DNA of 64,000 nt, taken from the sequence record KC801932; one strand, written 5' to 3'. Every line of letters starts with the position of its first letter. The first letter of the stretch is position 1. The notes below the pieces were generated by a model. The model worked only from the letters and a program-made list of their open reading frames with translations, had not been told where the DNA came from and did no database searches. Positions 6,481-56,682 of this stretch are shown here, one piece after another. This DNA is from Escherichia phage Lw1. The position numbers were made by a program, and so were the translations under genes.

Positions 6481-6728
6481 TGTGCATCCTCAAAATTAAT
6501 TAAATCTTTTGTAATCGTAGGTATGTCTTTTTTCGAAACGGTCGCGTTACACAACAGTTTCCCCGTGAAACCATCGTATATACTGACGCTATAATAGGCA
6601 CACGTACATTTGACTTTCTCTAGTCTTTTCATTTCGTCAATGATTACATGGATGGAAACGGATGTCGCCTTTAAATCAACTAATTCATAATAATCATGCG
6701 ATACAGTTTCAAGAGTATAGATATTCAT
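6477..6728 (-). CDS. hypothetical protein (83 aa)
   Basis: ORF in overlapping gene chain. Confidence 0.45.
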   Translation of the reverse strand: MNIYTLETVSHDYYELVDLKATSVSIHVIIDEMKRLEKVKCTCAYYSVSIYDGFTGKLLCNATVSKKDIPTITKDLINFEDAQ

Positions 6729-6934
6729 GGTTTGCCTTTTGTTTCGGATTTCAGGACGATGTTACTGTAAGGATCTTTTGCTACCAGTTCCCACAGGTCG
6801 CCAGGGTGTTCACCGCTACGGTAAACCGACGAACATATAATCTCATTAAATTTGCTTACGGCTTCGTCGATGTCGTCATACCCGTGTTTGAGGGGCTTAC
6901 GATTACACCGGATGAAAAACATTTCTTTATTCAT
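6725..6934 (-). CDS. hypothetical protein (69 aa)
   Basis: ORF in overlapping gene chain. Confidence 0.45.
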   Translation of the reverse strand: MNKEMFFIRCNRKPLKHGYDDIDEAVSKFNEIICSSVYRSGEHPGDLWELVAKDPYSNIVLKSETKGKP

Positions 6935-7205
6935 TGACTTTCACCATATTAGACATTATTTCTTCAAATGTCACGGGAATTTCTTTAGGATCGCGATCAC
7001 CATCGTCCCATTCCTCTCGATGTCCTTTAATTTTGCTAACTGCGATCTTTTTGTCGTTTTCCCACACGGTTACTTCAATGCGGTCGCCAACGTAAGGAAA
7101 GCTGGGGTGTTTGTTGATTGCATCAACACAGGTTTGGAGGGATTCAGAGACTTGAATGACTTCACCGAAATCATAATCTCCATGACGGGCCAGAACATAG
7201 ATCAT
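6927..7205 (-). CDS. hypothetical protein (92 aa)
   Basis: ORF in overlapping gene chain. Confidence 0.45.
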   Translation of the reverse strand: MIYVLARHGDYDFGEVIQVSESLQTCVDAINKHPSFPYVGDRIEVTVWENDKKIAVSKIKGHREEWDDGDRDPKEIPVTFEEIMSNMVKVNE

Positions 7206-7375
7206 AGAACCCCCAGGGTGCGCCCCATTTTACTCATGATATCAGCAAATATCATGAAGTTGACAATAAACACAACGACAATACAAATATTAGATGTTAT
7301 GCGATGCCCTCGTTCGGCACATGCCATAGAAAGATATAACAACACATAAAGGAAAACAATTATTAGCCATAGCAT
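7202..7375 (-). CDS. small membrane protein (57 aa; start at MLWLII)
   Basis: GAGGA RBS 9 nt upstream of ATG at 7375; hydrophobic throughout. Confidence 0.45.
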   Translation of the reverse strand: MLWLIIVFLYVLLYLSMACAERGHRITSNICIVVVFIVNFMIFADIMSKMGRTLGVL

Positions 7376-7385
7376 AATATAATCC

Positions 7386-7589
7386 TCACTGGATATAGCG
7401 GTTGTAGTTGACGTGCCACATGAGACTTGACACAACATCATAAGCAAGCAAAGAGAACAAGACAAAAGTCACTATCAAAAGGATAGCTAACCAAGTAGTT
7501 CCGATCTGGTGTTTTGAAGATAACAACAAACACACGATACTGACAAAAGAAAGTACAGTGATAACAAGCATCACGATTGAAGGGGCCAT
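7386..7589 (-). CDS. small membrane protein (67 aa)
   Basis: two hydrophobic helices; GAGGA RBS; preceded by terminator hairpin 7607-7622. Confidence 0.5.
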   Translation of the reverse strand: MAPSIVMLVITVLSFVSIVCLLLSSKHQIGTTWLAILLIVTFVLFSLLAYDVVSSLMWHVNYNRYIQ

Positions 7590-7630
7590 AATACAATCCT
7601 CACAAAAGCCCCTTTCGGGGCTTGATTTAA

Positions 7631-7909
7631 TCAGTGTCCGAACACACCACGAATTGATTCAGCGAAAGCGTAGAACGCGGGGTTGTTTTCTTTCAACATT
7701 GCTTCTGATTTCAAAAGATACTCACCTTTAAACTTAGTACCAAACAGACAGTAAGAGAAAGAGCGATCCCACATGAAGCAGTTGTAATACTCACCACAAC
7801 GAACTTCAACCATCACGTAACCAGGATTAGAACCTTCGGCATACTCTTTCAGGAGGTTGTATTTCGCATCAGCACCAGGAAAACCAGCCAGCAAATCGTT
7901 GTAAGTCAT
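7631..7909 (-). CDS. hypothetical protein (92 aa)
   Basis: ORF followed by hairpin terminator. Confidence 0.5.
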   Translation of the reverse strand: MTYNDLLAGFPGADAKYNLLKEYAEGSNPGYVMVEVRCGEYYNCFMWDRSFSYCLFGTKFKGEYLLKSEAMLKENNPAFYAFAESIRGVFGH

Positions 7910-7981
7910 GATGTATTCCTTTTTCGGTTTCGTTTCAACAAGGACACTGTATTATAATTCAATCATCATTGCAAGCACTTT

Positions 7982-8236
7982 TTAAAAAAGATGCGTTAAA
8001 TGTCCTGCATTGCTGGGGTATTCGACGTAATCACCACGGAAGATGTTCAAATCTTTATCAAATTTAAACCCATGTCCTTGAACATCTTCATGACGAGATA
8101 CATAAGATACTCCATACTTTTCAAGGTCTTCCATATACATTTCGGTGATTCTCTTCGCTTTATCCAATCCGCGTCCCTCAAATCGAGAACGTCGATAATT
8201 CGCAAGAAGAAACGCATATAATTCTTCGTATGTCAT
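7982..8236 (-). CDS. hypothetical protein (84 aa)
   Basis: ORF; overlaps upstream methyltransferase gene end. Confidence 0.45.
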   Translation of the reverse strand: MTYEELYAFLLANYRRSRFEGRGLDKAKRITEMYMEDLEKYGVSYVSRHEDVQGHGFKFDKDLNIFRGDYVEYPSNAGHLTHLF

Positions 8237-9144
8237 TTCAATACCTTTCTGATTTGTTTCGCTATGGCTTCGATCACGGGTATTGAAACTGAATTTCCCG
8301 CTTGACGATATGCCTGTTTTTTACTATCCGGTATGATAAATGAATCAGGGAATCCCTGCAAACGAAAACACTCACGGGGAGTAAGTCTTCTGGGGTTCTT
8401 TCCTTCCTGCAACACCAGACATTGAACGCCGTCCTTGTAATACTGCTGGGTTATCGTCCCAGTGTGCGTAGAATCGCTTGTGACGGCCTGATAACCAAAC
8501 CCCTTACCATTCGCCTTGTTTCGTTCCTTACGCTCTCTAAAGCCTTTCCACGCGTTATCTGATAGGGTGTATGAATCATCAGCATCTTCGAGGATATCGC
8601 CCACTCTCGTAGGGGTACGCGGAGGAACAGGAAACGAAAAGAATACATCATCCAGGAAGCAAACAATAAACACACGTTCACGTCTTTGTGGTAGTCCGAA
8701 ATCTTTTGTATTCAGTCGTTGATAGAATACGTTATATCCTTCGGCCTCCAGAAGCCCGTAAATCGTTTTAAACGTCTTCCCCTTGTCATGGGTTAGTAGT
8801 TCAGGCACGTTCTCAAAGAACAGCACACGGGGCTTTTTAGCGCGTATGATGCGGAGTATTTCAAAGAACACAGTACCGCGAACATCATCGAACCCCAGTT
8901 TTAATCCTGCTTTACTGAATGCCTGACACGGGAACCCAGCCAACAGGATATCGTGATCAGGTACTTCGGTTTCTTTTATCTGGAACAGATCTCCCTGTAG
9001 GTTATCATTGCCCCAGTTTTCGATATATGTTTGCTGTGCGAACTTGTCGATTTCAGACGTTAAAAGGCATTCGACACCGCCGAACGCCTTATCAAATCCT
9101 AATCGAACCCCGCCCACACCAGCACAGAGGTCAATTATTTTCAT
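8233..9144 (-). CDS. DNA (cytosine-5)-methyltransferase, Dcm-like
   Basis: all canonical C5-MTase motifs in order: I DLCAGVGG, IV GFPCQAFS, VI FENVPEL, VIII QRRERVF, IX RLTPRECFRLQGFPDSF, X GNSVSIPV. Confidence 0.9.
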   Translation of the reverse strand: MKIIDLCAGVGGVRLGFDKAFGGVECLLTSEIDKFAQQTYIENWGNDNLQGDLFQIKETEVPDHDILLAGFPCQAFSKAGLKLGFDDVRGTVFFEILRIIRAKKPRVLFFENVPELLTHDKGKTFKTIYGLLEAEGYNVFYQRLNTKDFGLPQRRERVFIVCFLDDVFFSFPVPPRTPTRVGDILEDADDSYTLSDNAWKGFRERKERNKANGKGFGYQAVTSDSTHTGTITQQYYKDGVQCLVLQEGKNPRRLTPRECFRLQGFPDSFIIPDSKKQAYRQAGNSVSIPVIEAIAKQIRKVLK

Positions 9145-9401
9145 ACGTCAAAATCAATCTCGTCAATTTTGTATGAGTTTTCGTCAATGTCCGCCCATAG
9201 GGTTACATTGACGTGTTTACTATCTTCGTACAGATTACGCCCGTTCATCCCGCCCGTGTAATTGCTTTCGGTACGTTCAGTAACTTCCAGTCGGAGGCTA
9301 TCGCGCATGATCTGAACAACAGCCTGTTCCAGCGTAACCGCGTCTGGGTTTTTGGTATCGCCCAGTACAACGTCTTTAACGTTCAAAATAACATCAGTCA
9401 T
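9141..9401 (-). CDS. hypothetical protein (86 aa)
   Basis: ORF. Confidence 0.45.
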   Translation of the reverse strand: MTDVILNVKDVVLGDTKNPDAVTLEQAVVQIMRDSLRLEVTERTESNYTGGMNGRNLYEDSKHVNVTLWADIDENSYKIDEIDFDV

Positions 9402-9685
9402 TAGTAAAATTTCCCATAGGTGTTGAAATTTACGTGCGTCGGGCTTGCTTCTTCAACACGAATTTCATAATCATAATCCTCATTTGTTACGGAACGATCA
9501 TGTTTGATGACATCAACGATATATACCCGGAAGAATGCATGATACAGCGCATCGCGGATCTTTTCAGCAAGTACCGGAGGCTCACTATACAGGTTAATCA
9601 TATCGGAAACAATATCCTCTACGCGAGGAATATCGCGTTTATCAATATAACCAGTATATAAATTTACTTCTTTCATTAATGCCAC
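9401..9685 (-). CDS. hypothetical protein (94 aa)
   Basis: ORF. Confidence 0.45.
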   Translation of the reverse strand: MALMKEVNLYTGYIDKRDIPRVEDIVSDMINLYSEPPVLAEKIRDALYHAFFRVYIVDVIKHDRSVTNEDYDYEIRVEEASPTHVNFNTYGKFY

Positions 9686-9921
9686 TCCGTTTCGATACCG
9701 TATTTGTATGCGTCAATCCCCAGAGGGGTGATCAACAGACACATATCAGTATTTTCGTTTGGCGACTTAAACGCCGCAGTTGCGTAACCTTTTTCAATCA
9801 GGGCATTACGCCCTGATTTACTGGGTACGTCATCGAAATCCAATGTTAACACCTGTGATGCATATCTGTAAAGTTTATACAGCACGTCAATTTCAGCACC
9901 GGATAATTTCGGGAATGTCAT
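9676..9921 (-). CDS. hypothetical protein (81 aa)
   Basis: ORF. Confidence 0.45.
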   Translation of the reverse strand: MTFPKLSGAEIDVLYKLYRYASQVLTLDFDDVPSKSGRNALIEKGYATAAFKSPNENTDMCLLITPLGIDAYKYGIETEWH

Positions 9922-10916
9922 TTGTAGTACCCCACAACGTGATCGCGATAAACGCGTTCGATAAAGTCGTTCCAGAACTCGCGATCAACCTCTTTCGGAT
10001 AATTAGAGACTGCTGCAAGGCGTTCGACTTCACCCATGATTTCTTCCAGCTTTTCCTGGACAAAAGTGAAAGGTTTCGTTCCGGCTTTAACTTCTTTTAA
10101 AAGCTGGCTCTCTTCCAGAGGATATACGATATCACCATGTTTGTAAATGCTGATAAGCTGTAAGCCTCCGCGCAATGCGTGAGAAAGTGCTTTCCAGTCG
10201 ATCCCGTTGTTGGCTTCTGCCTGTCTTGCTCGTTCACCATATTCGTCCCAGAGTTTATACACTGACTTTTTCATTTCAGCTACGGTGATCGTAGACTGGA
10301 ATTTGCGCCCCAGCACTTCATAGAAGTCCTGACAACCGGATTTCAGGGTTTTGTCTGTAGTGAATCGACAGAACTCATTGGTCGGGAATGTGTGAGAGAC
10401 TTCACCAACTTTGATGTGATGTGTTGCGTCACCCAGATTAGACGGCATACGAACAATGCGGCTATTTGGTGTATCCTGCAACACATCGTATACTTCACGC
10501 AGTGCAGCCAGGCGAGAACCTTTAACGCCATACTTCGCCGCTTGCTTACGAACATAACCAAACAGGCCAGTTAGTTCCGTAGTGTAGAAACGTGAACGGT
10601 TAGCGCGGATATACTGCCAGATTTCGGAGTTAGCGATCATCTTACTATCATCAGCATGAAGCATATCGAGCGCTACGGTATCACCATCACACGCAAGGCT
10701 AATGAACTTAGGCAGACTATACAACTGACGGTCGATGTCGTCTACGGTGTTCTTAGAGCTTTTATCGCCCGTGCTCGTGTCGATAGTCTTCGGGGCTTTA
10801 CCCAGTAAGATATCGCGTGGATGCGGGAGAAAGATCCCTTTATAATCTTTGTCGCTTGTCGGGGTGTTCAGTCCATACAGGTGAGAACCGAACACAGTTT
10901 CCATTACAATTTTCAT
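9918..10916 (-). CDS. Pol-beta superfamily nucleotidyltransferase (332 aa)
   Basis: N-terminal GS-x9-[DE]h[DE] signature FGSHLYGLNTPTSDKDYKGIF with third acidic residue about 60 aa downstream (ALDMLHADD); helical C-terminal half. Confidence 0.55.
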   Translation of the reverse strand: MKIVMETVFGSHLYGLNTPTSDKDYKGIFLPHPRDILLGKAPKTIDTSTGDKSSKNTVDDIDRQLYSLPKFISLACDGDTVALDMLHADDSKMIANSEIWQYIRANRSRFYTTELTGLFGYVRKQAAKYGVKGSRLAALREVYDVLQDTPNSRIVRMPSNLGDATHHIKVGEVSHTFPTNEFCRFTTDKTLKSGCQDFYEVLGRKFQSTITVAEMKKSVYKLWDEYGERARQAEANNGIDWKALSHALRGGLQLISIYKHGDIVYPLEESQLLKEVKAGTKPFTFVQEKLEEIMGEVERLAAVSNYPKEVDREFWNDFIERVYRDHVVGYYK

Positions 10917-11311
10917 AGTTCAATACCTAATGTTTTTGCGATATCTTTCAGTTGAAATGTAGCGATTTCGGGAACAACAACATAATGAGTACCGAACTCT
11001 TTTCGTATTTTTTCGCACAGTTCAGTACGATACTGAATTTCATTGTATACAGTTTCGCTGCGATACATATAAAATCCACCCCATCCACCACCAGAACCCG
11101 AAGTCAACCCGCACTTACGATCGACTTTCTCAACGTTCCAGTCTTTCGCGTCAGCATCTTTGTTGGTGGATGCGTACAAGTATTGACGAGCAACCTTGAT
11201 TACGTGAAACACGCGAGGATTTTCGACTCTGCGATTATTGTAATTTCTTGTACCCGGATCGTAAATGGTATCACCCACTTTCACATCAGTTAAATCTTTC
11301 AAATTATTCAT
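10913..11311 (-). CDS. hypothetical protein (132 aa, Gly-rich GSGGGWGG)
   Basis: ORF; overlaps neighbours by 4 nt. Confidence 0.45.
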   Translation of the reverse strand: MNNLKDLTDVKVGDTIYDPGTRNYNNRRVENPRVFHVIKVARQYLYASTNKDADAKDWNVEKVDRKCGLTSGSGGGWGGFYMYRSETVYNEIQYRTELCEKIRKEFGTHYVVVPEIATFQLKDIAKTLGIEL

Positions 11312-12593: not shown

Positions 12594-12650
12594 TCGTTTC
12601 GATGCCCCTAATATAACAAAAGCCCTCACGCGAACGCAAGGGCTTTTTTA
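12594..12650 (-). promoter_or_regulatory. PeSL-like cassette 2
   Basis: hairpin aaaagccctcacgcgaacgcaagggctttttt + TGTTATATT + conserved leader. Confidence 0.6.
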
Positions 12651-16973: not shown

Positions 16974-17146
16974 TCTCTCGCCTCTTTACGTTCTTTATCG
17001 ATTAAGTCATCAACGAAACTGACAATATCATCCCACCAGTCCAATGCTTCCTGTGATGCTTTCGCGTCACCTTCGAGGAAACGATCGCGGGACTTTACGA
17101 AGTTCTCTACTTTCTTATAGAGTTTTTCTTTATCTGCGTTGATCAT
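16970..17146 (-). CDS. hypothetical small protein (58 aa)
   Basis: ORF below track cut-off; ATGA overlaps at both ends couple it to neighbours. Confidence 0.35.
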   Translation of the reverse strand: MINADKEKLYKKVENFVKSRDRFLEGDAKASQEALDWWDDIVSFVDDLIDKERKEARE

Positions 17147-17619
17147 AATTCCACCTTACGCATATCAATAGACGGATCGAAGTGTACCACGATGGTCGGA
17201 TAGTCGCCAGTAGAATCGTTTATAATGTCTTTAATGCGTTCCCAGTCGCCTCCAGCAAGCCCCGCACCAATAAGAGGGTAACGTTCAGGACACGCCCTGG
17301 CGCTTTCCACGGCGCTTTCAAAGCATGAACGGATTGCGTCGTAATCCACTTGTGGGCCAGCACCCCAGAACTTAAACTGGGTATAGGCGTTGAACACCAT
17401 ACGACCATCCTCTTGAACATAAACAGAGTTACGGCCCAGTTTTTTCTGGTTGCCTTTAAGCGTCATTGCATCCATTCGAAACGCGCCAGGGATTTTCTTC
17501 TTTACTTCTTTTGCAATCCCCGCACCCATATTACAGAAGCAGTTACACCCATGAATCAGGTGTACGTCACGACGAAGGAACAACTCAACAGCGTTCCCTT
17601 TAATCTCTTTGATAATCAT
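17143..17619 (-). CDS. macrodomain protein, TARG1/DarG-like (ADP-ribose processing)
   Basis: LIHGCNCFCNMGAGIAKEV matches the recalled H-C-x-S/N-x-D/C-x-x-MGAGIA core of TARG1/OARD1-type macrodomains; second Gly-rich loop GAGLAGGDW. Confidence 0.55.
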   Translation of the reverse strand: MIIKEIKGNAVELFLRRDVHLIHGCNCFCNMGAGIAKEVKKKIPGAFRMDAMTLKGNQKKLGRNSVYVQEDGRMVFNAYTQFKFWGAGPQVDYDAIRSCFESAVESARACPERYPLIGAGLAGGDWERIKDIINDSTGDYPTIVVHFDPSIDMRKVEL

Positions 17620-20298: not shown

Positions 20299-20312
20299 GT
20301 ATACCTCACGAA

Positions 20313-20335
20313 AAAAGGGGCCGAAGCCCCTTTGA
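20313..20335 (-). terminator. hairpin ggggcttcggcccc + T6 terminator
   Basis: perfect GC stem, UUCG-type loop, T-run on minus strand; same stem recurs at 35161-35185. Confidence 0.7.
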
Positions 20336-24880: not shown

Positions 24881-25191
24881 TTACTTTTGATTCTGTTGCA
24901 TTCTTCCGCACACTCTTTTTCCGCAAGGATTTTGCGAACAACCGCGTTTCTGATTTTCCAGAGATAATCGATCATCTGCATATCTTCGGGAGTGTGATAA
25001 CCTTTCATATCGCATTCAAATACGATAGCATCGCGTTCTGACATTGCCATTATCGCGGTAGCCGAACAAATGGTCATCCCACTATATTTTTCAATCAACG
25101 ATTCCAGTGTACGCTTTTCTGCCGGAATGTCAACAGTTATCGGAACAGGACGGATTCTTGTAGTCGAATCGTCGAAGGATTGATAAATCAT
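24865..25191 (-). CDS. hypothetical protein (108 aa)
   Basis: ORF. Confidence 0.45.
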   Translation of the reverse strand: MIYQSFDDSTTRIRPVPITVDIPAEKRTLESLIEKYSGMTICSATAIMAMSERDAIVFECDMKGYHTPEDMQMIDYLWKIRNAVVRKILAEKECAEECNRIKSKWGVL

Positions 25192-26342
25192 TTTAACTCC
25201 ACTGCATAAACATCGGTTTCGGGGGCTTTGTGTACGCGCATATCTTTACCACATACCGCATAAGCCGGACAGTTGCGACAACCGTTATGATCCGTGTTGC
25301 CTGTCAGTTCTTTACGGAACTGTTTTGTTTTCGGGTGTTCCCAGATATCTTTGATAAAATCATCGGCTTCAAGGACATTCAAACCTTCACCCCAGCCACC
25401 TTCAACCCAACGTTCGGTAAACGAGCAAGGGAAGAATTCGCCTTTTTCGTTGATGTAAGAGCTAAACATCGTCGCTTCACAATCTTCCGCATACTGCTTG
25501 TATTGTTCGAAGTTCGGGTGTCCCTCCATCGCTTCAACGAAAGCTGGGGCTGAACAGCTATCGAATCCAAATCCTACACCAGAATCAAGGCAGTATTCAA
25601 CAAGTTTTTTGTATTGTTCGCGGGTGACTGTATCCCAGTTCTTACCACGTCCCTTTTGTTTCAGACCCAGGAACACGATCGCGTTGACTTGTTTCAGGCG
25701 CGGATCATTACGCACAGCATCAACAACGGTAAACGCATCATCATAGGTCTTTGAGCTAACCATGAAATGTAGGTTGATTTGCTGTTGTCCTGCTTCTGCC
25801 AGGTTTGCGACGGAATCGAAAGCAACATCGAAGCCAGCATGTTTATAAACCGATACTGCAACAGCCCCAGCAACCGCCGCTAAACGCGCTGCAACGTCTT
25901 TTGATACATCAGCAATGGTAAGGTTCGGTACAATGCCTTTAGAACGCGCATAGGCCATCATATCGAACATATCAGGGTTTGTTTGTCCCTGTGCATCAGC
26001 ACCGAGTGCGCATTGGGTTAACCAGGGCATTTTATCAATGATGGATTTGAAAGAAGCAAGATCCATATTGTAGCCGTTCGGGTTATTGGACTTGTAACAG
26101 AAACCACACAGCTTACCAGCGGGGCCATTACATTTAGTTGTGATCTCGATATCGAGGATAAAAGGAAAATGACTATAAATAGGATCGTCAGCAGGAGTTT
26201 TGCCCCAAGTCATCATATGACCTGTTTTCATATCAAAATTAAAATTAACCTCTTCGGAACGATAGATTTTCTTTCCTTTCGCTTCCAGTAGAAGTCCAAC
26301 AGGCGTTTTGATATGTTTGGCGTTTACTTTAACGTGTCTCAT
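25188..26342 (-). CDS. Fe-S protein, radical-SAM-like with C-terminal SPASM/twitch-like Cys motif
   Basis: ITTKCNGPAGKLCGFCY (Cx7Cx2C, rSAM-like TxxCN..C.FCY context) and C-terminal CRNCPAYAVC (Cx2Cx5C); start set at MRHVKV with GAGGT RBS. Confidence 0.45.
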   Translation of the reverse strand: MRHVKVNAKHIKTPVGLLLEAKGKKIYRSEEVNFNFDMKTGHMMTWGKTPADDPIYSHFPFILDIEITTKCNGPAGKLCGFCYKSNNPNGYNMDLASFKSIIDKMPWLTQCALGADAQGQTNPDMFDMMAYARSKGIVPNLTIADVSKDVAARLAAVAGAVAVSVYKHAGFDVAFDSVANLAEAGQQQINLHFMVSSKTYDDAFTVVDAVRNDPRLKQVNAIVFLGLKQKGRGKNWDTVTREQYKKLVEYCLDSGVGFGFDSCSAPAFVEAMEGHPNFEQYKQYAEDCEATMFSSYINEKGEFFPCSFTERWVEGGWGEGLNVLEADDFIKDIWEHPKTKQFRKELTGNTDHNGCRNCPAYAVCGKDMRVHKAPETDVYAVELK

Positions 26343-26354
26343 AGGAACCTCATA

Positions 26355-27083
26355 ATGTATTACGTTTACAGAATCACAAATGTTATAGAGAACAAGCACT
26401 ATTATGGATCAAGAAAACCTAAAAAGTCAATGCTTGCTTCCGACGATTTAGGGAAACACTATTTCAGTAGTTCCCGTGATAGTCATTTCATCCAAGATCA
26501 GAAGGAAAATCCAGGACACTACAAATATAAAGTAATCGTATCGGGGTTGTCAAGGGAAAAGGCGATGAAACTTGAGAAAAGGTTACACGAAATCTACAAG
26601 GTGGACACGAACCCACATTTTTATAACAAACACATACACAACAGCGTTGATTTTTCATGTACACCAGAAACAGGAAAGAAGATTTCACAAACACACCAGA
26701 AATATGCAGCAAAGAAAATTTCAGAATCACATAAAAGGCGATTCAAGGAAGGTATAGCATCACATAAAGGAGAGAACAACCCACGATACAACGATCATCG
26801 GTCTTATGAAGAGATACACGGAGAAGAAAAAGCGGAGACTATACGCAAAGCACAATCTGAATCAAGAAGAGGAAAAGGCAATTCCCGCGCGGTTACGTGG
26901 AAATTTACTTCCCCTAATGGAGAAGAATTTTTAGTTGAAGGAGAATGTAAAAAGTTTTGCAAAGACAGAAATATTTCCATGCGTAAACTGAAAACCTATC
27001 TGGGTGAAGTCATCACAACATGCGATAAACCCTACTATATCTCTAAGAATACCGTAGGATGGAAATTAGAAAAGATTATTTGA
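26355..27083 (+). CDS. GIY-YIG homing endonuclease (Seg-like)
   Basis: N-terminal MYYVYRITN...HYYGS (GIY..YIG), basic C-terminal DNA-binding region; lone plus-strand gene among minus-strand genes. Confidence 0.7.
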   Translation: MYYVYRITNVIENKHYYGSRKPKKSMLASDDLGKHYFSSSRDSHFIQDQKENPGHYKYKVIVSGLSREKAMKLEKRLHEIYKVDTNPHFYNKHIHNSVDFSCTPETGKKISQTHQKYAAKKISESHKRRFKEGIASHKGENNPRYNDHRSYEEIHGEEKAETIRKAQSESRRGKGNSRAVTWKFTSPNGEEFLVEGECKKFCKDRNISMRKLKTYLGEVITTCDKPYYISKNTVGWKLEKII

Positions 27084-27330
27084 ATCTTCTTTTACGTTCG
27101 TCAGCCAATTCTTGTTTGTACGTTTTAATGTACTTCCCGTTAAGAATTCGAAGTTGCTGGAAAACTTTGTTGCACAAAGCACGTTTCGCTTTGTATTCTG
27201 GTGTATTGCGGATTGATTCGATCGTCATACCCATTTCGTTTTTAGGGTAAGCGCTCAACTCCCTGCCGATCTCTCTGTACCAGTTGCTTAACTGGTCACG
27301 CTTTGCTTTGTACTCTTCAAAAGTTAACAT
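27076..27330 (-). CDS. hypothetical protein (84 aa)
   Basis: ORF; degenerate PeSL-like hairpin upstream at 27347-27384. Confidence 0.45.
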   Translation of the reverse strand: MLTFEEYKAKRDQLSNWYREIGRELSAYPKNEMGMTIESIRNTPEYKAKRALCNKVFQQLRILNGKYIKTYKQELADERKRRFK

Positions 27331-27481
27331 AACAATCTCCGGTTTAGTTTCTATGTGTGTAAGGTATCATTACCATACACACAAAGCAAGCTATATTTTC
27401 AAAATTAATCGGAATAATACAAAACAGAACACAGCAGAAAACACCCAACATACAACGAAGAACAACGCGATTCTTTTCAAA

Positions 27482-27634
27482 TCATTCAAGGAATCTTCCA
27501 AAATCGGTTGCAACATCTTTCGGATCTGCTTCAAGTTCATACAGTTCACGAGCTAACGAACTTGGTTTGATATCACGCCCTAAATGGGCACTAACGGCAC
27601 TTAACCACTTAATGTAAGGATCGAACTTGCTCAT
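27482..27634 (-). CDS. hypothetical small protein (50 aa; start at MSKFDP)
   Basis: shortened from ORF-track call to avoid overlap with upstream gene. Confidence 0.3.
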   Translation of the reverse strand: MSKFDPYIKWLSAVSAHLGRDIKPSSLARELYELEADPKDVATDFGRFLE

Positions 27635-27644
27635 GGTATGCCTT

Positions 27645-27896
27645 TTATTTGATGCGTACTGCGTTGAAAGCCTGGTTACGAAGTTCGAAAGCCTGTTCAA
27701 GCTGTTCCGTGGTGAACAGAGGGCTGTCAGTGTTCGTAGTGAAACTGCAAATCGTTTTGCTGTCTGCGTTGACTTCTTCAACAACGATATCATAACCCCA
27801 GATCCCGCTAAGTTCGCACTTCACATTCCGGTACTTGATGTATACCGCAACAACATCTTCTTTCTTATAATTCCGGCTTTTGTAGATGATTTCCAT
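27645..27896 (-). CDS. hypothetical protein (83 aa)
   Basis: GGAGGA RBS; PeSL cassette 3 upstream. Confidence 0.5.
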   Translation of the reverse strand: MEIIYKSRNYKKEDVVAVYIKYRNVKCELSGIWGYDIVVEEVNADSKTICSFTTNTDSPLFTTEQLEQAFELRNQAFNAVRIK

Positions 27897-27908
27897 GATA
27901 TCCTCCTT

Positions 27909-27960
27909 CGTTTCGATGTGTGTAATATAACAGATCAGGGTTATCGAGTTTTAGCAATTC
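27909..27960 (-). promoter_or_regulatory. PeSL-like cassette 3
   Basis: cgtttcgatgtgtgtaatataac core (TGTTATATT on minus strand); weaker hairpin. Confidence 0.5.
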
Positions 27961-27967
27961 GTGCTAA

Positions 27968-28246
27968 TTATGCCATTTTCTTAGCGATTTTCCAGGCGGC
28001 TTTGAACGCTGGAACGTCTTCAATCTCAACCCAGAAACCAGATCCGAAACCATCATTGTAGCAAGGACAACCGTCGCAGTAGTTTTCCCAGGTCATCACT
28101 TCACCACCAACAGAAGCACCAGTTTCCATAGCGCGTAACGCATCTTCAACTTTTTCCAGTTTTTCGGCGTTGTCGTCGTAAATGGTGAAGTACCATTTGC
28201 CGTTGTATTCGTTACCCAGTTTGATTGCTTCGCGAACAAGTTTCAT
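27968..28246 (-). CDS. hypothetical protein (92 aa; start at MKLVRE)
   Basis: AAGGAAA RBS; ORF-track extension begins at a TTG inside the cassette. Confidence 0.5.
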   Translation of the reverse strand: MKLVREAIKLGNEYNGKWYFTIYDDNAEKLEKVEDALRAMETGASVGGEVMTWENYCDGCPCYNDGFGSGFWVEIEDVPAFKAAWKIAKKMA

Positions 28247-28269
28247 GATGATTTCCTTTTTGTCTGTTT

Positions 28270-28327
28270 CGTTTCGATGTGTGTAATATAACAAAACCCC
28301 TCACCATAGGCAAGGGGTTTCTTTAAC
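28270..28327 (-). promoter_or_regulatory. PeSL-like cassette 4
   Basis: core identical to cassette 3 plus hairpin aacccctcaccataggcaaggggtt. Confidence 0.6.
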
Positions 28328-28335
28328 AAAACGTG

Positions 28336-28584
28336 CTATTTTGTTTCTTCGAGGATTCGAAGGATTTCGGCGCGGGGGATCGGATGTTTTGCCAGCTCAC
28401 GGATCGCATGATCAAGATGCGTTTTACACATCAAGAATTCTTTCCCGCATTTGTGGCATGTCGCATACATATCACCATGTATACGGTCGATTCCATCCAT
28501 CACATAATACTTCATAAAGACGTAAGGTGTTCCACCATTCCAGCCCCGCGCAACGTGATTACACTCTCGATTGAACCATGACAT
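28336..28584 (-). CDS. hypothetical protein (82 aa, Cys/His-rich)
   Basis: ORF. Confidence 0.45.
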   Translation of the reverse strand: MSWFNRECNHVARGWNGGTPYVFMKYYVMDGIDRIHGDMYATCHKCGKEFLMCKTHLDHAIRELAKHPIPRAEILRILEETK

Positions 28585-29186
28585 CAGTAATACCCTGGAT
28601 CTTTGAAGTGTGCTTTCATGTATCGCAGAATTTCATGAAGCATCTGGATTTGCTCATGTCCACGTTGTGAAGACATATCGATCATGACGCGAGTCATTTC
28701 GACGTTCTCCAGGCTTGATATACGCTGTTTTAAGGCGTTGTTTTCCTCTTCCAACTCAACCATACGGTCATATGCTTTGATACGCTCCAGAGGCATATCA
28801 GGGCGCTGTTTGAGGACACGGGCGCGGGACACTTCGCATTCGTGATTTGCTTTCCAGTGATCACGTTCACTAGCAATTTTATCGTTCTCCTGGTGTAGAC
28901 GTACAATCTCTTTAAGGAGGCGTTCAGTGGTATCGGGATCAAACGAAACCATGTATTGCATCAGGGATTGCAACCACAGATCCTCTAGCACCGACTGTAA
29001 CGCTTTAGGCCCAATAATGGTAAACGCGCGTTTCTTCATGTTGCTACCGAAACCGTAGTTAACGTTACCCGTAATCGAACCTGGTTGATTCGTACCATCC
29101 CACTTGTCACCGATAACAGGTTTTACTTGCTGAATAGCACGATTCAGTATTTCTAATTCTTCATCTAAAATCATTTCATATCCCAT
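28584..29186 (-). CDS. hypothetical coiled-coil protein (200 aa)
   Basis: ORF. Confidence 0.45.
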   Translation of the reverse strand: MGYEMILDEELEILNRAIQQVKPVIGDKWDGTNQPGSITGNVNYGFGSNMKKRAFTIIGPKALQSVLEDLWLQSLMQYMVSFDPDTTERLLKEIVRLHQENDKIASERDHWKANHECEVSRARVLKQRPDMPLERIKAYDRMVELEEENNALKQRISSLENVEMTRVMIDMSSQRGHEQIQMLHEILRYMKAHFKDPGYY

Positions 29187-29575
29187 AATTCATATTGTGA
29201 GCGAAGGATAGCGTAAAGGCTACCGATATGGATCGTGTCTACCGGACACTGGAACAGATCCCCGCGCATCATGTTAAACTCGATATCGTTACGTTCAACA
29301 TAGTTGCCGATCATTGATGTCCAGCCCATCACCAGGTTGTAACCATCTTCCGATAACCCATAAGCCAACTTAACCAAGATGCATCGCTTATCAGCCAGTT
29401 CTACGCGCATATGGGTACTGGTATGGGTGACCTTGTTCGGGAATCTGCGAAACATTTTAGTAAGGAGTTTTGCGGTTTCAATATTGAACGCCAGTTCTTG
29501 ATCCTTACTGGTCTGGTTATCATGACGACGATCCAGATATTTCTTCATTTTCGGATTCAGATTCACATGTTGCAT
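29171..29575 (-). CDS. hypothetical protein (134 aa)
   Basis: ORF. Confidence 0.45.
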   Translation of the reverse strand: MQHVNLNPKMKKYLDRRHDNQTSKDQELAFNIETAKLLTKMFRRFPNKVTHTSTHMRVELADKRCILVKLAYGLSEDGYNLVMGWTSMIGNYVERNDIEFNMMRGDLFQCPVDTIHIGSLYAILRSQYELWDMK

Positions 29576-29784
29576 AATATATCCCTCACAGGTTTATAAC
29601 GTTCTTTTCCAGTGCCGTTGCATGAACTGCATTTTGGCGATCCGTGGTTATCATATCGCCCCGAACCATTACATGCAACACATTTCCGTAATTTCCAGCC
29701 ATACACGAACCGCATGTAATAATCGGTTCGTGCTGCCTTGCGCTCATGGAAGTTCATACTTTGTTGTAAACCTGAACAACCCAC
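29563..29784 (-). CDS. small zinc-finger protein (CVACNGSG ... CSSCNGTG, DnaJ-like CxxCxGxG repeats)
   Basis: two CxxCxGxG motifs; start position uncertain. Confidence 0.4.
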   Translation of the reverse strand: MGCSGLQQSMNFHERKAARTDYYMRFVYGWKLRKCVACNGSGRYDNHGSPKCSSCNGTGKERYKPVRDILCNM

Positions 29785-29957
29785 ATTTCGATGTTCGGCG
29801 CGTAAGTAACGTTTACCATCGGCATAGTGCGGTATTTGTAAGCGGCTTTGTACGCATCGAGTTCAGTTGGAACACAGAAAGAGAAACCGTTGTCATAACG
29901 TTCTGCGTTAGAAACTTCATAACCAACTACAGCAGCAATATTTTTGTTCATGTTCAT
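29754..29957 (-). CDS. hypothetical protein (67 aa; start at MNMNKN)
   Basis: AAAGGAAAAC RBS; PeSL cassette 5 upstream. Confidence 0.5.
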   Translation of the reverse strand: MNMNKNIAAVVGYEVSNAERYDNGFSFCVPTELDAYKAAYKYRTMPMVNVTYAPNIEMWVVQVYNKV

Positions 29958-29978
29958 GATGTTTTCCTTTCTGTGTTT

Positions 29979-30034
29979 CGTTTCGATGTGTGTAATATAC
30001 AAAAAAGCCCCTGCATTGCAAGAGGCTTTTGAAT
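29979..30034 (-). promoter_or_regulatory. PeSL-like cassette 5
   Basis: core cgtttcgatgtgtgtaatatac plus hairpin agcccctgcattgcaagaggct. Confidence 0.6.
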
Positions 30035-30993
30035 TATTTTGGCAATTTTTTGATTAATGCTTGTAAGTCGTTGATTTTAGAAAACAGTTCATCGCTATAT
30101 CGCATCAATTCCTGTCTGCGTTTCGCAGCCCATGAAACCAATGTTTTTGCATCATCAACACCATAAGTGTATCCATCAGCGGATAGACGAATGATCGCAC
30201 GAGAACCGTAGTCAGCATTTGCATGTTCGATTAAAAACTTCACCGCTTCGAGAAGTTCGGAATCTTCCTTACTGACTAGAACACCGTTATCATCAGGAAA
30301 TTCGTTTTCATCATGAACACTTGCAAAATCAAGGTCGATATAATCATCCTGATTCACCTGGCGGCGCGTGTTGTCTTCGAGACTTTCAATCTGTGAAACC
30401 ATAGTTTCGACCGGATCTCTTTCAATTGGTTCTCTGTCGGTTCCTACTTCTTCCAGGAACATCAACAACCAACCAGGGATCAACGAATCAAAAGAACGCT
30501 GAATATGGCTTGCATGGTCACTACCCAGTATTTTCAACGCACAACCGTCTTTAGTAGCGGTATGGATATAGATAACATTACGGTCACGCATACGGCGGCT
30601 ACCATGAGAAAGATAGCGACGTAGCGAAGTGTTATGTCCATAGCGTCCCAGATCCAGGTTACACAGGGAATCAATAGCCCCACGGTTAGCAATCCGGTAG
30701 CGCGTACCAGTTTCAAATCGCAACTTTTCGGTAGTCACTGGTGTGAATTCTTCGTAAAGAATGTAATATTCTTTCGGGATCTCGCGATCAAGAACTCTCA
30801 ATACACCATTCTCCGAAGGAGTGAGCACAGAACGAACATTACCGTTCGCATCGCAATGTACCTGCATGACTTGAGGATAATAGAACCCTTTAGCCTTTAG
30901 GGTGTATTCATGCAAACGACTCAAGCGCTTTCTGTAGTACCATTTACCAGTAACAAACGGGGTTGCAGATCCTGCTAAACTAATTGGTTTCAT
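30034..30993 (-). CDS. hypothetical protein (319 aa), co-transcribed with DUF262 gene
   Basis: ATGA overlap with upstream DUF262 ORF; no motif recognised. Confidence 0.5.
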   Translation of the reverse strand: MKPISLAGSATPFVTGKWYYRKRLSRLHEYTLKAKGFYYPQVMQVHCDANGNVRSVLTPSENGVLRVLDREIPKEYYILYEEFTPVTTEKLRFETGTRYRIANRGAIDSLCNLDLGRYGHNTSLRRYLSHGSRRMRDRNVIYIHTATKDGCALKILGSDHASHIQRSFDSLIPGWLLMFLEEVGTDREPIERDPVETMVSQIESLEDNTRRQVNQDDYIDLDFASVHDENEFPDDNGVLVSKEDSELLEAVKFLIEHANADYGSRAIIRLSADGYTYGVDDAKTLVSWAAKRRQELMRYSDELFSKINDLQALIKKLPK

Positions 30994-31523
30994 TTTGTGG
31001 CCTTATACATTTCAATTACGCGTTTCATGTGCTCTTGTGATTGAGGCACACCAGCGAAGTTCAATTTAATGAAGAATTCAAGACGATCCTTTTTGGTGCA
31101 TTCATCCAGCCCCAGGGCAGGTAATGACAAGTTTTCAAAGGCTCGTTGTTCATGTCGTTGCATATCATCCCAGAACAGACGGGAACCATCCGGCATAGGA
31201 ATCCCAATCTCACCCTCATAGACTTTGATGATAGTCGTCAGGCGTTGTTTCCCGTCGATTACTTCTACCCAATGGGATTCATTGAATTCACTATCAACGG
31301 CAATCGCGATAATACCACATGGGAAACCAGTGATCAACGTAGTCAGGAATTCATCTTGTTCTTTCTGCGTCCACACGTAGGGGCGCTGATACGATGGATT
31401 CAGATCCAGATCCTTATTTTTCCACCAGTGAATATAACTTCCAACCATGATCGCATGTTCACGACTTTTGAAAGTTATCCGTTCACGAATTCGGTTACGG
31501 GCTGGGATATCATCTTTAGACAT
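30990..31523 (-). CDS. DUF262 (ParB/Srx-like, GmrS N-terminal-type) domain protein
   Basis: NPSYQRPYVWTQ ... VIDGKQRLTT resembles the DUF262 QR-x-yvW and DGQQR motifs. Confidence 0.5.
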   Translation of the reverse strand: MSKDDIPARNRIRERITFKSREHAIMVGSYIHWWKNKDLDLNPSYQRPYVWTQKEQDEFLTTLITGFPCGIIAIAVDSEFNESHWVEVIDGKQRLTTIIKVYEGEIGIPMPDGSRLFWDDMQRHEQRAFENLSLPALGLDECTKKDRLEFFIKLNFAGVPQSQEHMKRVIEMYKATK

Positions 31524-34403: not shown

Positions 34404-34458
34404 TGTTTCGACACCCCTAATATAACAAAAGCCCCTGCACGAATGCAAGGGCTTTTTC
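34404..34458 (-). promoter_or_regulatory. PeSL-like cassette 6
   Basis: core tgtttcgacacccctaatataac plus hairpin agcccctgcacgaatgcaagggct. Confidence 0.6.
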
Positions 34459-35160: not shown

Positions 35161-35185
35161 TGAAAAAGGGGCCGAAGCCCCTAGT
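35161..35185 (-). terminator. hairpin ggggcttcggcccc + T5 terminator between 57A and acb1
   Basis: same stem-loop as 20313-20335. Confidence 0.6.
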
Positions 35186-56675: not shown

Positions 56676-56682
56676 TTTAACA

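Follow-up and report, generated by a model that had tools for sequence, protein, structure and literature searches.

The promoter-early stem-loops (PeSLs) of the phage pairs RB49/phi1, PST/T4 and nt-1/KVP40 join a terminator hairpin to a promoter, a Shine–Dalgarno sequence (SD) and an ATG, and they flank small, variable open reading frames (ORFs) in hyperplastic regions (PMC2839356; PMC4122927). For the RB49 elements, mini-circles as well as promoter and terminator activity have been shown, and the mini-circle crossovers were placed between the −10 box and the SD/ATG (PMC2839356). In these papers, the RB43 group is represented only by 'PeSL-like sequences' near g43 (PMC2839356; PMC4122927). 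Here we analyse PeSL-type cassettes in a 64,000-nucleotide (nt) stretch of Escherichia phage Lw1 (KC801932; hereafter the window), in which an earlier note had singled out three cassettes within 2.1 kb (positions 27909–30034) as the boundaries of small genes and as a likely shuffling hotspot. These cassettes, which we call C3, C4 and C5, persist among relatives while their contents change, and they are probably composite regulatory units that double as recombination patches for gene modules.

The 4-kb stretch around the cassettes matched 173 phage records, with the Citrobacter phages Xman (94.8%), CfP1 and Miller as best matches and coliphage RB16 next, and all matched relatives belong to Pseudotevenvirus, the RB16/RB43/Miller group of T4-type myoviruses. 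The counterpart of the locus in RB16 lies within a hyperplastic region, a long run of small minus-strand early genes that extends from gene 25 (baseplate) to genes 57/1/3. Within the window, a 20-nt core (TATATTACACACATCGAAAC, minus strand) occurs in exact copies in C3, C4 and C5 (Table 1), with start-to-start spacings of 361 and 1709 nt. Further copies lie at 948–967 (one mismatch) and 27347–27366 (three mismatches), against an expectation of 0.00–0.01 matches in shuffled sequence. The earlier note was accurate on the three cassettes, on their spacings and on the ORFs that it named, all of which exist; the segment 28336–29957, in which it placed a few small ORFs, contains five genes (g6–g10). 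Looser pattern scans identified seven cassettes in the window, at 948, 12596, 27347 (degenerate), 27910, 28271, 29980 and 34405, all of them on the minus strand and three or four of them inside 2.7 kb. Across the loci that we collected, the exact core stands ahead of at least 14 different ORFs.

From 5′ to 3′ on the minus strand, the parts of a full cassette would be an optional marbox-like box, a hairpin, a TATATT −10 box, an A/C-rich leader from about CATCGAAAC, and an SD with its ATG. The −10/leader segment is identical over 17–27 nt between cassette copies, the C4 leader is the same as that of C5, and an SD (AGGAAA or GGAGG) lies 5–9 nt ahead of the ATGs of g4, frd.1 and g10. C5 has no marbox-like box, and C3 has neither a hairpin (fold of −6.0 kcal/mol, z −0.6) nor a −35 hexamer at usable spacing. 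The hairpins of C4 (−21.5 kcal/mol, z −4.4) and C5 (−13.9 kcal/mol, z −2.2) are each followed by a T-tract. Sigma70-like hexamers are present in both (TTGCCT-17-TATATT in C4 and TTGCAA-16-TATATT in C5, each with 9 of 12 matches); because such matches are no commoner in the region than in shuffles of it, support for sigma70-like promoters comes from conservation.

Twenty distinct hairpin variants from relatives were folded one by one, anchored on the CTTG of the 5′ arm. All 20 fold stably (−12 to −26 kcal/mol), with G–C/C–G and A–T/C–G/G–C switches and many G–U pairs among them, which fits an RNA-level stem (a terminator) better than a DNA cruciform. CTTG is invariant across the variants, as expected if it is also part of the −35 box. 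MAFFT mis-registered stems of unequal length, and RNAalifold run on the resulting alignment of the 20 variants, mis-registered stems included, returned only four pairs and no covariation; an Rfam search of the whole window matched zero families. Two side observations concern cassette uniformity. The C3 −10 box is TATATT in the window and in phage Prick1 and TATTGT in nearly all other relatives, and the TATATT form reflects a promoter-up change or else a short tract of gene conversion from C4. The cassettes at 12596–12615 and 34405–34424 make up a second sub-family, with AGGGG(C/T)(A/G)TCGAAAC replacing ACACACATCGAAAC between the −10 and the leader, and the uniformity of each sub-type within genomes suggests concerted evolution among copies.

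The likeness to PeSLs extends beyond the order of parts. In both, the hairpin may overlap the −35 or the spacer (a described PeSL subclass), G–U pairs occur, small variable ORFs are flanked, the crossover falls between the −10 and the SD/ATG, and deletion of an ORF leaves one chimeric copy. Unlike PeSLs, the cassettes have a weak −35 (TTGCnn rather than TTGACA), and their best-conserved part is the transcribed leader (CATCGAAAC...) rather than the hexamers or the GGGG/CCCC stem; C3 has no stem-loop, C3 and C4 carry a marbox-like box, and the cassette is also found in T1-like siphoviruses. The PmSLs of vibriophage nt-1, which are PeSL-like units built around MotA-type middle promoters (PMC4122927), likewise place an activator box in a stem-loop cassette in lieu of the −35, but the box here is not a Mot box. 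The cassettes are a known, PeSL-type element, and they extend the PeSL shuffling model to the RB16/RB43 genus through natural variants, which is a useful but expected addition.

We mapped the window genes, alternative ORFs and cassettes onto 18 relatives from two genera, Pseudotevenvirus and Slopekvirus. In the interval from g12 to g2, the order of genes, alleles and cassettes was distinct in all 19 genomes, whereas the adjoining nudE-g15-g14-g13-g12 block had a single order in 18 of 18. The count of 19 of 19 overstates the rate, because diversity was one criterion in picking the relatives and allele classes were assigned from the best tblastn match, but the contrast with the neighbouring block is real. 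The region is thus not collinear among relatives, which is what the earlier note had proposed to check by synteny.

Deletion, insertion and replacement variants were all found at the cassettes. In UPEC03, frd.1 is deleted and a single cassette is left, in which the upstream half of C4 passes into the C3 downstream half through a crossover in ACACACATCGAAACGAA. In Taquito and Maroon, an SD, a 333-nt ORF and a second cassette are inserted in the C4 leader, with a direct repeat of about 27 nt on either side. The same 333-nt ORF and extra cassette occupy the same site in the Slopekvirus Matisse (from annotation and tblastn, unaligned), and the insertion is absent from KP15, a member of the same genus, so the polymorphism is present in two genera. 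We found this ORF in 69 records; among these are siphoviruses of 46 kb, T4-like phages of Aeromonas and a Pectobacterium phage. In GuL6, an unrelated ORF of 95 amino acids (aa; PHROG 6147) substitutes for frd.1 behind an unaltered C4, and two other contigs have homologues of it downstream of the same leader; one of these contigs is probably T1-like. Homologues of RB16p162, RB16p159, RB16p157 and the 333-nt ORF were not found in the window, so there is no sign of intragenomic relocation. Separately, several RefSeq records, as well as PHROG 19403, label the 333-nt ORF (Taquito locus L027, 4320–4652; Matisse locus L179, 5001–5333) 'head protein'. This label looks doubtful, because the ORF is a small early-region accessory gene that also occurs in unrelated phage types.

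Exchanges of alleles and of whole genes also have edges at the cassettes. CfP1 and Miller carry a g10 allele of 51% identity that begins directly after the C5 leader. In RB16, GAP161 and most relatives, g11 is swapped for a 103-aa ORF (33% identity to the g11 C terminus), and one edge of the swap is at the C5 hairpin. The g11 of the window is Xman/Miller-like (at least 98%) and the sequence just beyond it is RB16-like (99–100%); three of the four combinations of C5 upstream and downstream alleles were observed. Relatives differ in whether they have g6, at the upstream edge of C4, and RB16p162, at the upstream edge of C3 (the latter occurs in 13 of 60 among the matches listed), and in RB43 g4 and C3 are missing together. 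The degenerate cassette is one edge of a variable g3/RB16p159 segment: g3 has two alleles (about 90% and 55% identity), and RB16p159, absent from the window, varies beside the cassette. Further into the block, g7 has at least three divergent alleles (about 93%, 44–48% and 37–40% identity), with some breakpoints inside the gene, and g8 is replaced in Slopekvirus. Plus-strand ORFs annotated in Taquito (L027, 4680–4997) and Prick1 (locus L030, 5469–5888) are antisense to homologues of g6 and g10, and their annotation is probably spurious; a plus-strand ORF resembling them occupies the equivalent place in EcRAM-01 (locus L176, 5953–6327).

The cassettes are also shared across phage families. Contigs of Webervirus (T1-like Klebsiella siphoviruses) encode a frd.1 homologue with 71–73% aa identity. 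In the alignment, a box, a short hairpin, a −10 and CATCGAAACGAA...CAAAAAGGAAA.CATCATG lead into frd.1, which is followed by the box GCACGAATTGCTAAA, 20 nt, a −10 and CATCGAAAC ahead of the next gene. The sole architectural difference is that the C4 hairpin of the window is 11 nt longer, and this places the box at the class I distance instead of the class II distance (both discussed below). Because the Webervirus cassettes are nucleotide-conserved with those of the window, whereas other T4-like contigs with an equally similar frd.1 have no cassettes, the cassette–frd.1–cassette module has moved between phage families, with the cassette common to both.

In the model that we favour, each cassette would be a composite regulatory unit in the early-gene hyperplastic region of Pseudotevenvirus. 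Its G+C-rich hairpin would terminate upstream transcripts and bear a TTGC −35 in its 5′ arm, and the cassette would both insulate the next small gene or block and restart transcription. The identical −10/leader segments would double as short homology patches. Recombination between two copies in one genome would remove the intervening DNA, and recombination between co-infecting genomes, T1-like siphoviruses included, would insert or swap promoter-equipped modules while leaving genes unbroken. The same mechanism has been proposed for the PeSLs of RB49/phi1 (PMC2839356). We infer the promoter and terminator activities, and that homology causes the events rather than marking sites at which they are tolerated.

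It is also conceivable that the repeats are only selected expression signals, and that gene variation comes from illegitimate recombination, homing endonucleases and allele exchange through flanking homology; variation would show at cassettes simply because cassettes fill the intergenic gaps where breaks are tolerated. Several findings pull in this direction and weigh against recombination at the cassettes. Around half of the breakpoint clusters map to ordinary gene junctions that lack a cassette or to the interior of genes, g7 among them, and much of the pattern is thus accounted for by selection for intact genes. The g6 and RB16p162 indels adjoin cassettes but have TAA-type microhomology only, a homing endonuclease about 250 nt away accounts for the replacement at 26160–27090, and many of the variants represent diverged alleles of one gene rather than new genes. 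Cassette-free indels also occur elsewhere, as in the loss of RB16p155 and several gains and losses of homing endonuclease genes. The cassette-specific footprint comprises three events, with junctions inside the shared core in only two or three, and the frd.1 deletion is present in 1 of 171 records, one that is labelled 'partial genome'. However, the UPEC03 and Taquito-type junctions lie exactly within the 17–27-nt core, unlike random breakage, the nudE–g12 block has gene junctions yet no rearrangement in 18 genomes, and a whole cassette–gene–cassette module is common to an unrelated phage family. Given these observations, we judge it unlikely that the repeats are expression signals and nothing else. 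The premise of the earlier note that cassettes promote homologous exchange is supported by the UPEC03 deletion and the Taquito/Maroon/Matisse insertion, both with a core-crossover footprint, and by the GuL6 replacement, but not by the edge indels with microhomology only or by the many cassette-free breakpoints. A dedicated, integron-like site-specific system that recognizes the hairpin, instead of general homologous recombination, is highly improbable: the shape of the hairpin is conserved and the PeSL authors speculated on a specific binding protein (PMC2839356), but the mapped crossovers are in the leader rather than the hairpin, C3 takes part although it lacks a hairpin, and Pfam/PHROG annotation of the neighbouring genes showed neither an integrase nor a recombinase.

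The density of variation further tempers the picture. A comparison with RB16 that spanned 46 kb gave 18 structural differences, and 26.1–31.0 kb accounts for four or five of them. This is only about twice the average of the hyperplastic region in that comparison; the stretch at 6.5–11.3 kb is as dense, and several of the differences elsewhere are gains or losses of homing endonucleases. The expectation that gene gain and loss would be most frequent here is therefore right in that this is one hot stretch, and overstated in that it is not demonstrably the hottest. The further suggestion, that the enclosed ORFs were recently acquired, did not hold up. They are the majority state in the genus, they fall in existing PHROG families, frd.1 is a conserved DUF5417 gene, and a composition scan gave the ORFs of 27.5–30 kb a G+C content (0.42–0.46) equal to that of the flanks. 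Given their presence in most relatives and their flank-like composition, recent acquisition is not supported for this genome. The same scan of 27.5–30 kb gave no foreign-DNA signal, low G+C content being confined to the homing endonuclease segment.

Other breaks relative to RB16 are at 453/486, 1092/1627 (beside cassette 1), 6481–11258 (five breaks) and 12397/12776 (across cassette 2), and about 640 nt at 16977–17615 of the window are missing from RB16. On the plus strand, at 26313–27083, a homing endonuclease ORF (PHROG 314, with no Pfam match; G+C content 0.38) replaces the RB16p157 homologue, and the radical-SAM gene beside it has a divergent 5′ end. The copy of this endonuclease in Klebsiella phage Prick1 is 98% identical, and that in one IMG/VR contig is partly deleted. 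At 25186–25191, an ORF of about 300 nt (the RB16p155 homologue) is missing; it is present in every relative examined, between the RB16p154 homologue and the radical-SAM gene. The flanks of this cassette-free site abut with a 6-nt overlap.

The upstream box of C3 and C4, absent from the description in the earlier note, recurs in other cassettes: many of the 71 distinct cassettes in our catalogue carry ATAGCAC-N3-TTGCTAAA. It has the same sequence as a 21-nt repeat, aaATAGCACnnnTTGnTAAAA, that was described in phage TLS, with T1, Rtp and Rogue1 also named as carriers; this repeat is intergenic, co-oriented with transcription and about 76 nt before start codons (PMC11447400). The C3 and C4 copies (AATTAGCACGAATTGCTAAAA and AAATAGCACGTTTTGTTAAAG) lie on the coding strand and precede the respective ATGs by about 70 and 92 nt. 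Across the collected loci, the box and the T1-like repeat also agree in having three sub-types (AAA/TTT/GAA) and in being co-oriented and intergenic. Unlike that repeat, described only for Drexlerviridae, the box here is in a T4-like myovirus, at two fixed distances from the −10 and inside PeSL-type cassettes. The GenBank record of KP15 tags the homologous sites as 'putative middle promoter; discovered using MEME'.

Three identities were considered and set aside. Inspection of the cassettes ruled out the T4 late promoter (TATAAATA) on sequence. A T4 MotA middle promoter was ruled out because 22 nt separate the TGCT of the box from the −10, compared with 11–13 nt for the Mot box, (a/t)(a/t)(a/t)TGCTT(t/c)A, which is centred at −30. 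A second reason for this rejection is that motA and Mot-type promoters are both lacking in the RB43 group (PMC1524935; PMC3486835). A dimer-bound palindrome (TAGCA-N5-TGCTA) was dropped after the asymmetric marbox match and the micF spacing described next.

Against a marbox matrix of 87 Salmonella sites from chromatin immunoprecipitation followed by sequencing (ChIP-seq; PMC10268841), the C3 box scored 17.0, exceeding 85 of the 87 genuine sites and ranking first among the 127,972 positions of the window, and it is identical at 14 of 15 positions to the best Salmonella site (GCACAAATTGCTAAA). The C4 box scored 14.4, about as high as the Escherichia coli micF box, and both boxes match AYnGCACnnWnnRYYAAAY. 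The distance from the box 15-mer to the −10 is 20 nt in 96 of 214 distinct instances and 31 nt in 17, over a background of 0–8 per bin, and a smaller peak at 23 nt (17 instances) is due to overlapping −10-like hexamers. In the E. coli K-12 genome, this distance is 20 nt for micF and 32 nt for zwf, the box of which is 7 bp upstream of the −35. Class II marbox promoters have a forward box centred near −41 that overlaps the −35 position, and they lack a −35 hexamer (PMC10268841; PMC9638938). The C3 box is likewise forward, 20 nt (15-mer) or 18 bp (20-bp marbox) from TATATT, with no −35 hexamer, the transcription start being assumed. In C4, 6 bp separate the 20-bp box from TTGCCT and the 15-mer is 31 nt from the −10, one bp off the zwf arrangement and with the putative terminator hairpin intervening. 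In sequence, orientation and spacing, the C3 box is thus like that of the micF (class II) mar/sox/rob promoter, whereas the C4 box comes near to the zwf (class I) type (PMC9638938; PMC10268841). Unlike the chromosomal promoters, the putative phage marboxes lie in lytic genomes, are nearer to the optimum than most and are followed by a phage-specific conserved leader.

Phage Rtp (locus L180) has 20 boxes at the right spacing to a −10-like hexamer, compared with 1.6 in shuffles. About 18 of these are strong and exactly 20 nt from the hexamer, and they stand ahead of genes throughout the genome, structural genes included, many with a CATCGAAAC-type leader after them; promoters of this kind thus seem to predominate in T1-like phages. 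There is an even chance, in our estimate, that the upstream box (ATAGCACnnnTTGYTAAA) is a UP-like element, a 'stoperator' or the site of a phage protein, and not a Mar/Sox/Rob site. Near genome-wide use of the box in Rtp, before about 18 transcription units, sits oddly with dependence on stress-inducible activators, although Rob is constitutive. The authors of the TLS study listed a stoperator, an enhancer site or a UP element as options for the function of the same repeat (PMC11447400). Against such readings stand the rank of the C3 box among ChIP-seq sites and window positions, the agreement of the main spacing with micF and of the second peak with zwf, and the fact that the 20-nt class, by inspection, has no sigma70-type −35, as in class II marbox promoters. 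Nor was a phage-encoded candidate found in both families. tblastn did not find a MarA homologue in phages of Klebsiella, Citrobacter, Enterobacter and Cronobacter (13 Escherichia records were not all inspected), and the Cro-like regulator Rtp52 was found only in phages of about 45–52 kb (40 of 825 matching records sampled). As no phage factor common to both families was found, a host factor would be the simplest shared reader of the box. We tentatively propose, as a possibility that falls somewhat short of even, that the C3/C4 box is a genuine marbox through which the phages would recruit host RNA polymerase via Rob, MarA, SoxS or RamA (C3 as a micF-type class II and C4 as a zwf-type class I promoter), and that the cassette may be a common currency for module exchange between siphoviruses and myoviruses. 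No paper that connects marboxes to phage promoters came up in full-text literature searches.

PHROG and Pfam assignments were made for the ten ORFs g2–g11 of the locus (frd.1 among them; Table 1). All ten fall in PHROG families of unknown function, and the only features recovered from Pfam and PHROGs were DUF5417 and a CXXCXGXG mini-finger.

Table 1. Cassettes, their parts and the surrounding genes in the window
Feature	Position	Strand	Remarks
Cassette 5 (C5)	29958–30033	−	Starts after g11 stop; ends at g10 ATG 29957
C5 hairpin (putative terminator)	30003–30030	−	−35 TTGCAA 30016–30021 within hairpin
C5 −10 TATATT	29994–29999	−	Core 29980–29999; leader CATCGAAACGAAACACAGAAAGGAAAACATC (also given as ACACACATCGAAACGAAACACAGAAAGGAAAACATC)
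Cassette 4 (C4)	28247–28338	−	Ends at frd.1 ATG 28246; leader and SD
C4 marbox-like box GCACGTTTTGTTAAA (also given as ATAGCACGTTTTGTTAAA)	28322–28336	−	TAG in box is g6 stop codon
C4 hairpin (putative terminator)	28293–28321	−	−35 TTGCCT 28308–28313 within; −10 TATATT 28285–28290; core 28271–28290
Cassette 3 (C3)	27897–27967	−	Core 27910–27929; SD GGAGG; ends at g4 ATG 27896
C3 marbox-like box GCACGAATTGCTAAA (also given as TTAGCACGAATTGCTAAA)	27950–27964	−	20-nt unstructured spacer, then −10 TATATT 27924–27929
Degenerate fourth cassette	27331–27396	−	Precedes g2; TTGCTT-17-TACCTT; core TACCTTACACACATAGAAAC 27347–27366
g11	30034–30993	−	319 aa, PHROG 10932; ends at C5 hairpin
g10	29754–29957	−	67 aa, PHROG 7982; downstream of C5 (putative promoter)
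g9	29563–29757	−	64 aa, CXXCXGXG zinc-ribbon mini-protein, PHROG 12902
g8	29171–29575	−	134 aa, PHROG 10044
g7	28584–29186	−	200 aa, PHROG 7582
g6	28336–28584	−	82 aa, PHROG 12346; adjoins C4 marbox-like box
frd.1	27968–28246	−	92 aa, DUF5417/PHROG 1254 (conserved T4-family); sole gene between C4 and C3
g4	27645–27896	−	83 aa, PHROG 7818; downstream of C3 (putative promoter)
g3	27482–27634	−	50 aa, PHROG 8088
g2	27076–27330	−	84 aa, PHROG 7560; downstream of degenerate cassette

Two observations lie outside the cassettes. Immediately upstream of the variable g11 slot, g12 (30990–31523) consists of an N-terminal GmrSD/DUF262 domain only (177 aa). Identical 20-nt hairpin-type repeats (AAAAAGGGGCCGAAGCCCCT) occur at 20312–20331 and 35163–35182, and a further repeat that resembles them begins at 56679; the repeats have the look of terminators and are unrelated to the cassettes.

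Lambdoid morons and integron cassettes are self-contained promoter–gene(–terminator) units or slots, the content of which varies between relatives. The parallel with the cassettes is one of analogy only, as these differ in having neither attC/integrase chemistry nor a context of lysogenic conversion, and their exchange appears to be based on short homology. The presence of the cassette and its module in T1-like siphoviruses points to a concrete route of gene flow between unrelated virulent phages that share hosts. The marbox match, in turn, offers a testable answer both to the function of the conserved T1-like repeat and to the question of how pseudo-T-even phages without MotA drive promoters that are neither early nor late. 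If it is correct, MotA-less pseudo-T-even phages and T1-like phages would have a common class of activator-dependent promoter, and expression of these accessory genes would be coupled to host stress (antibiotic, oxidative and bile), which would be relevant to phage therapy with Klebsiella, Enterobacter and Citrobacter phages.

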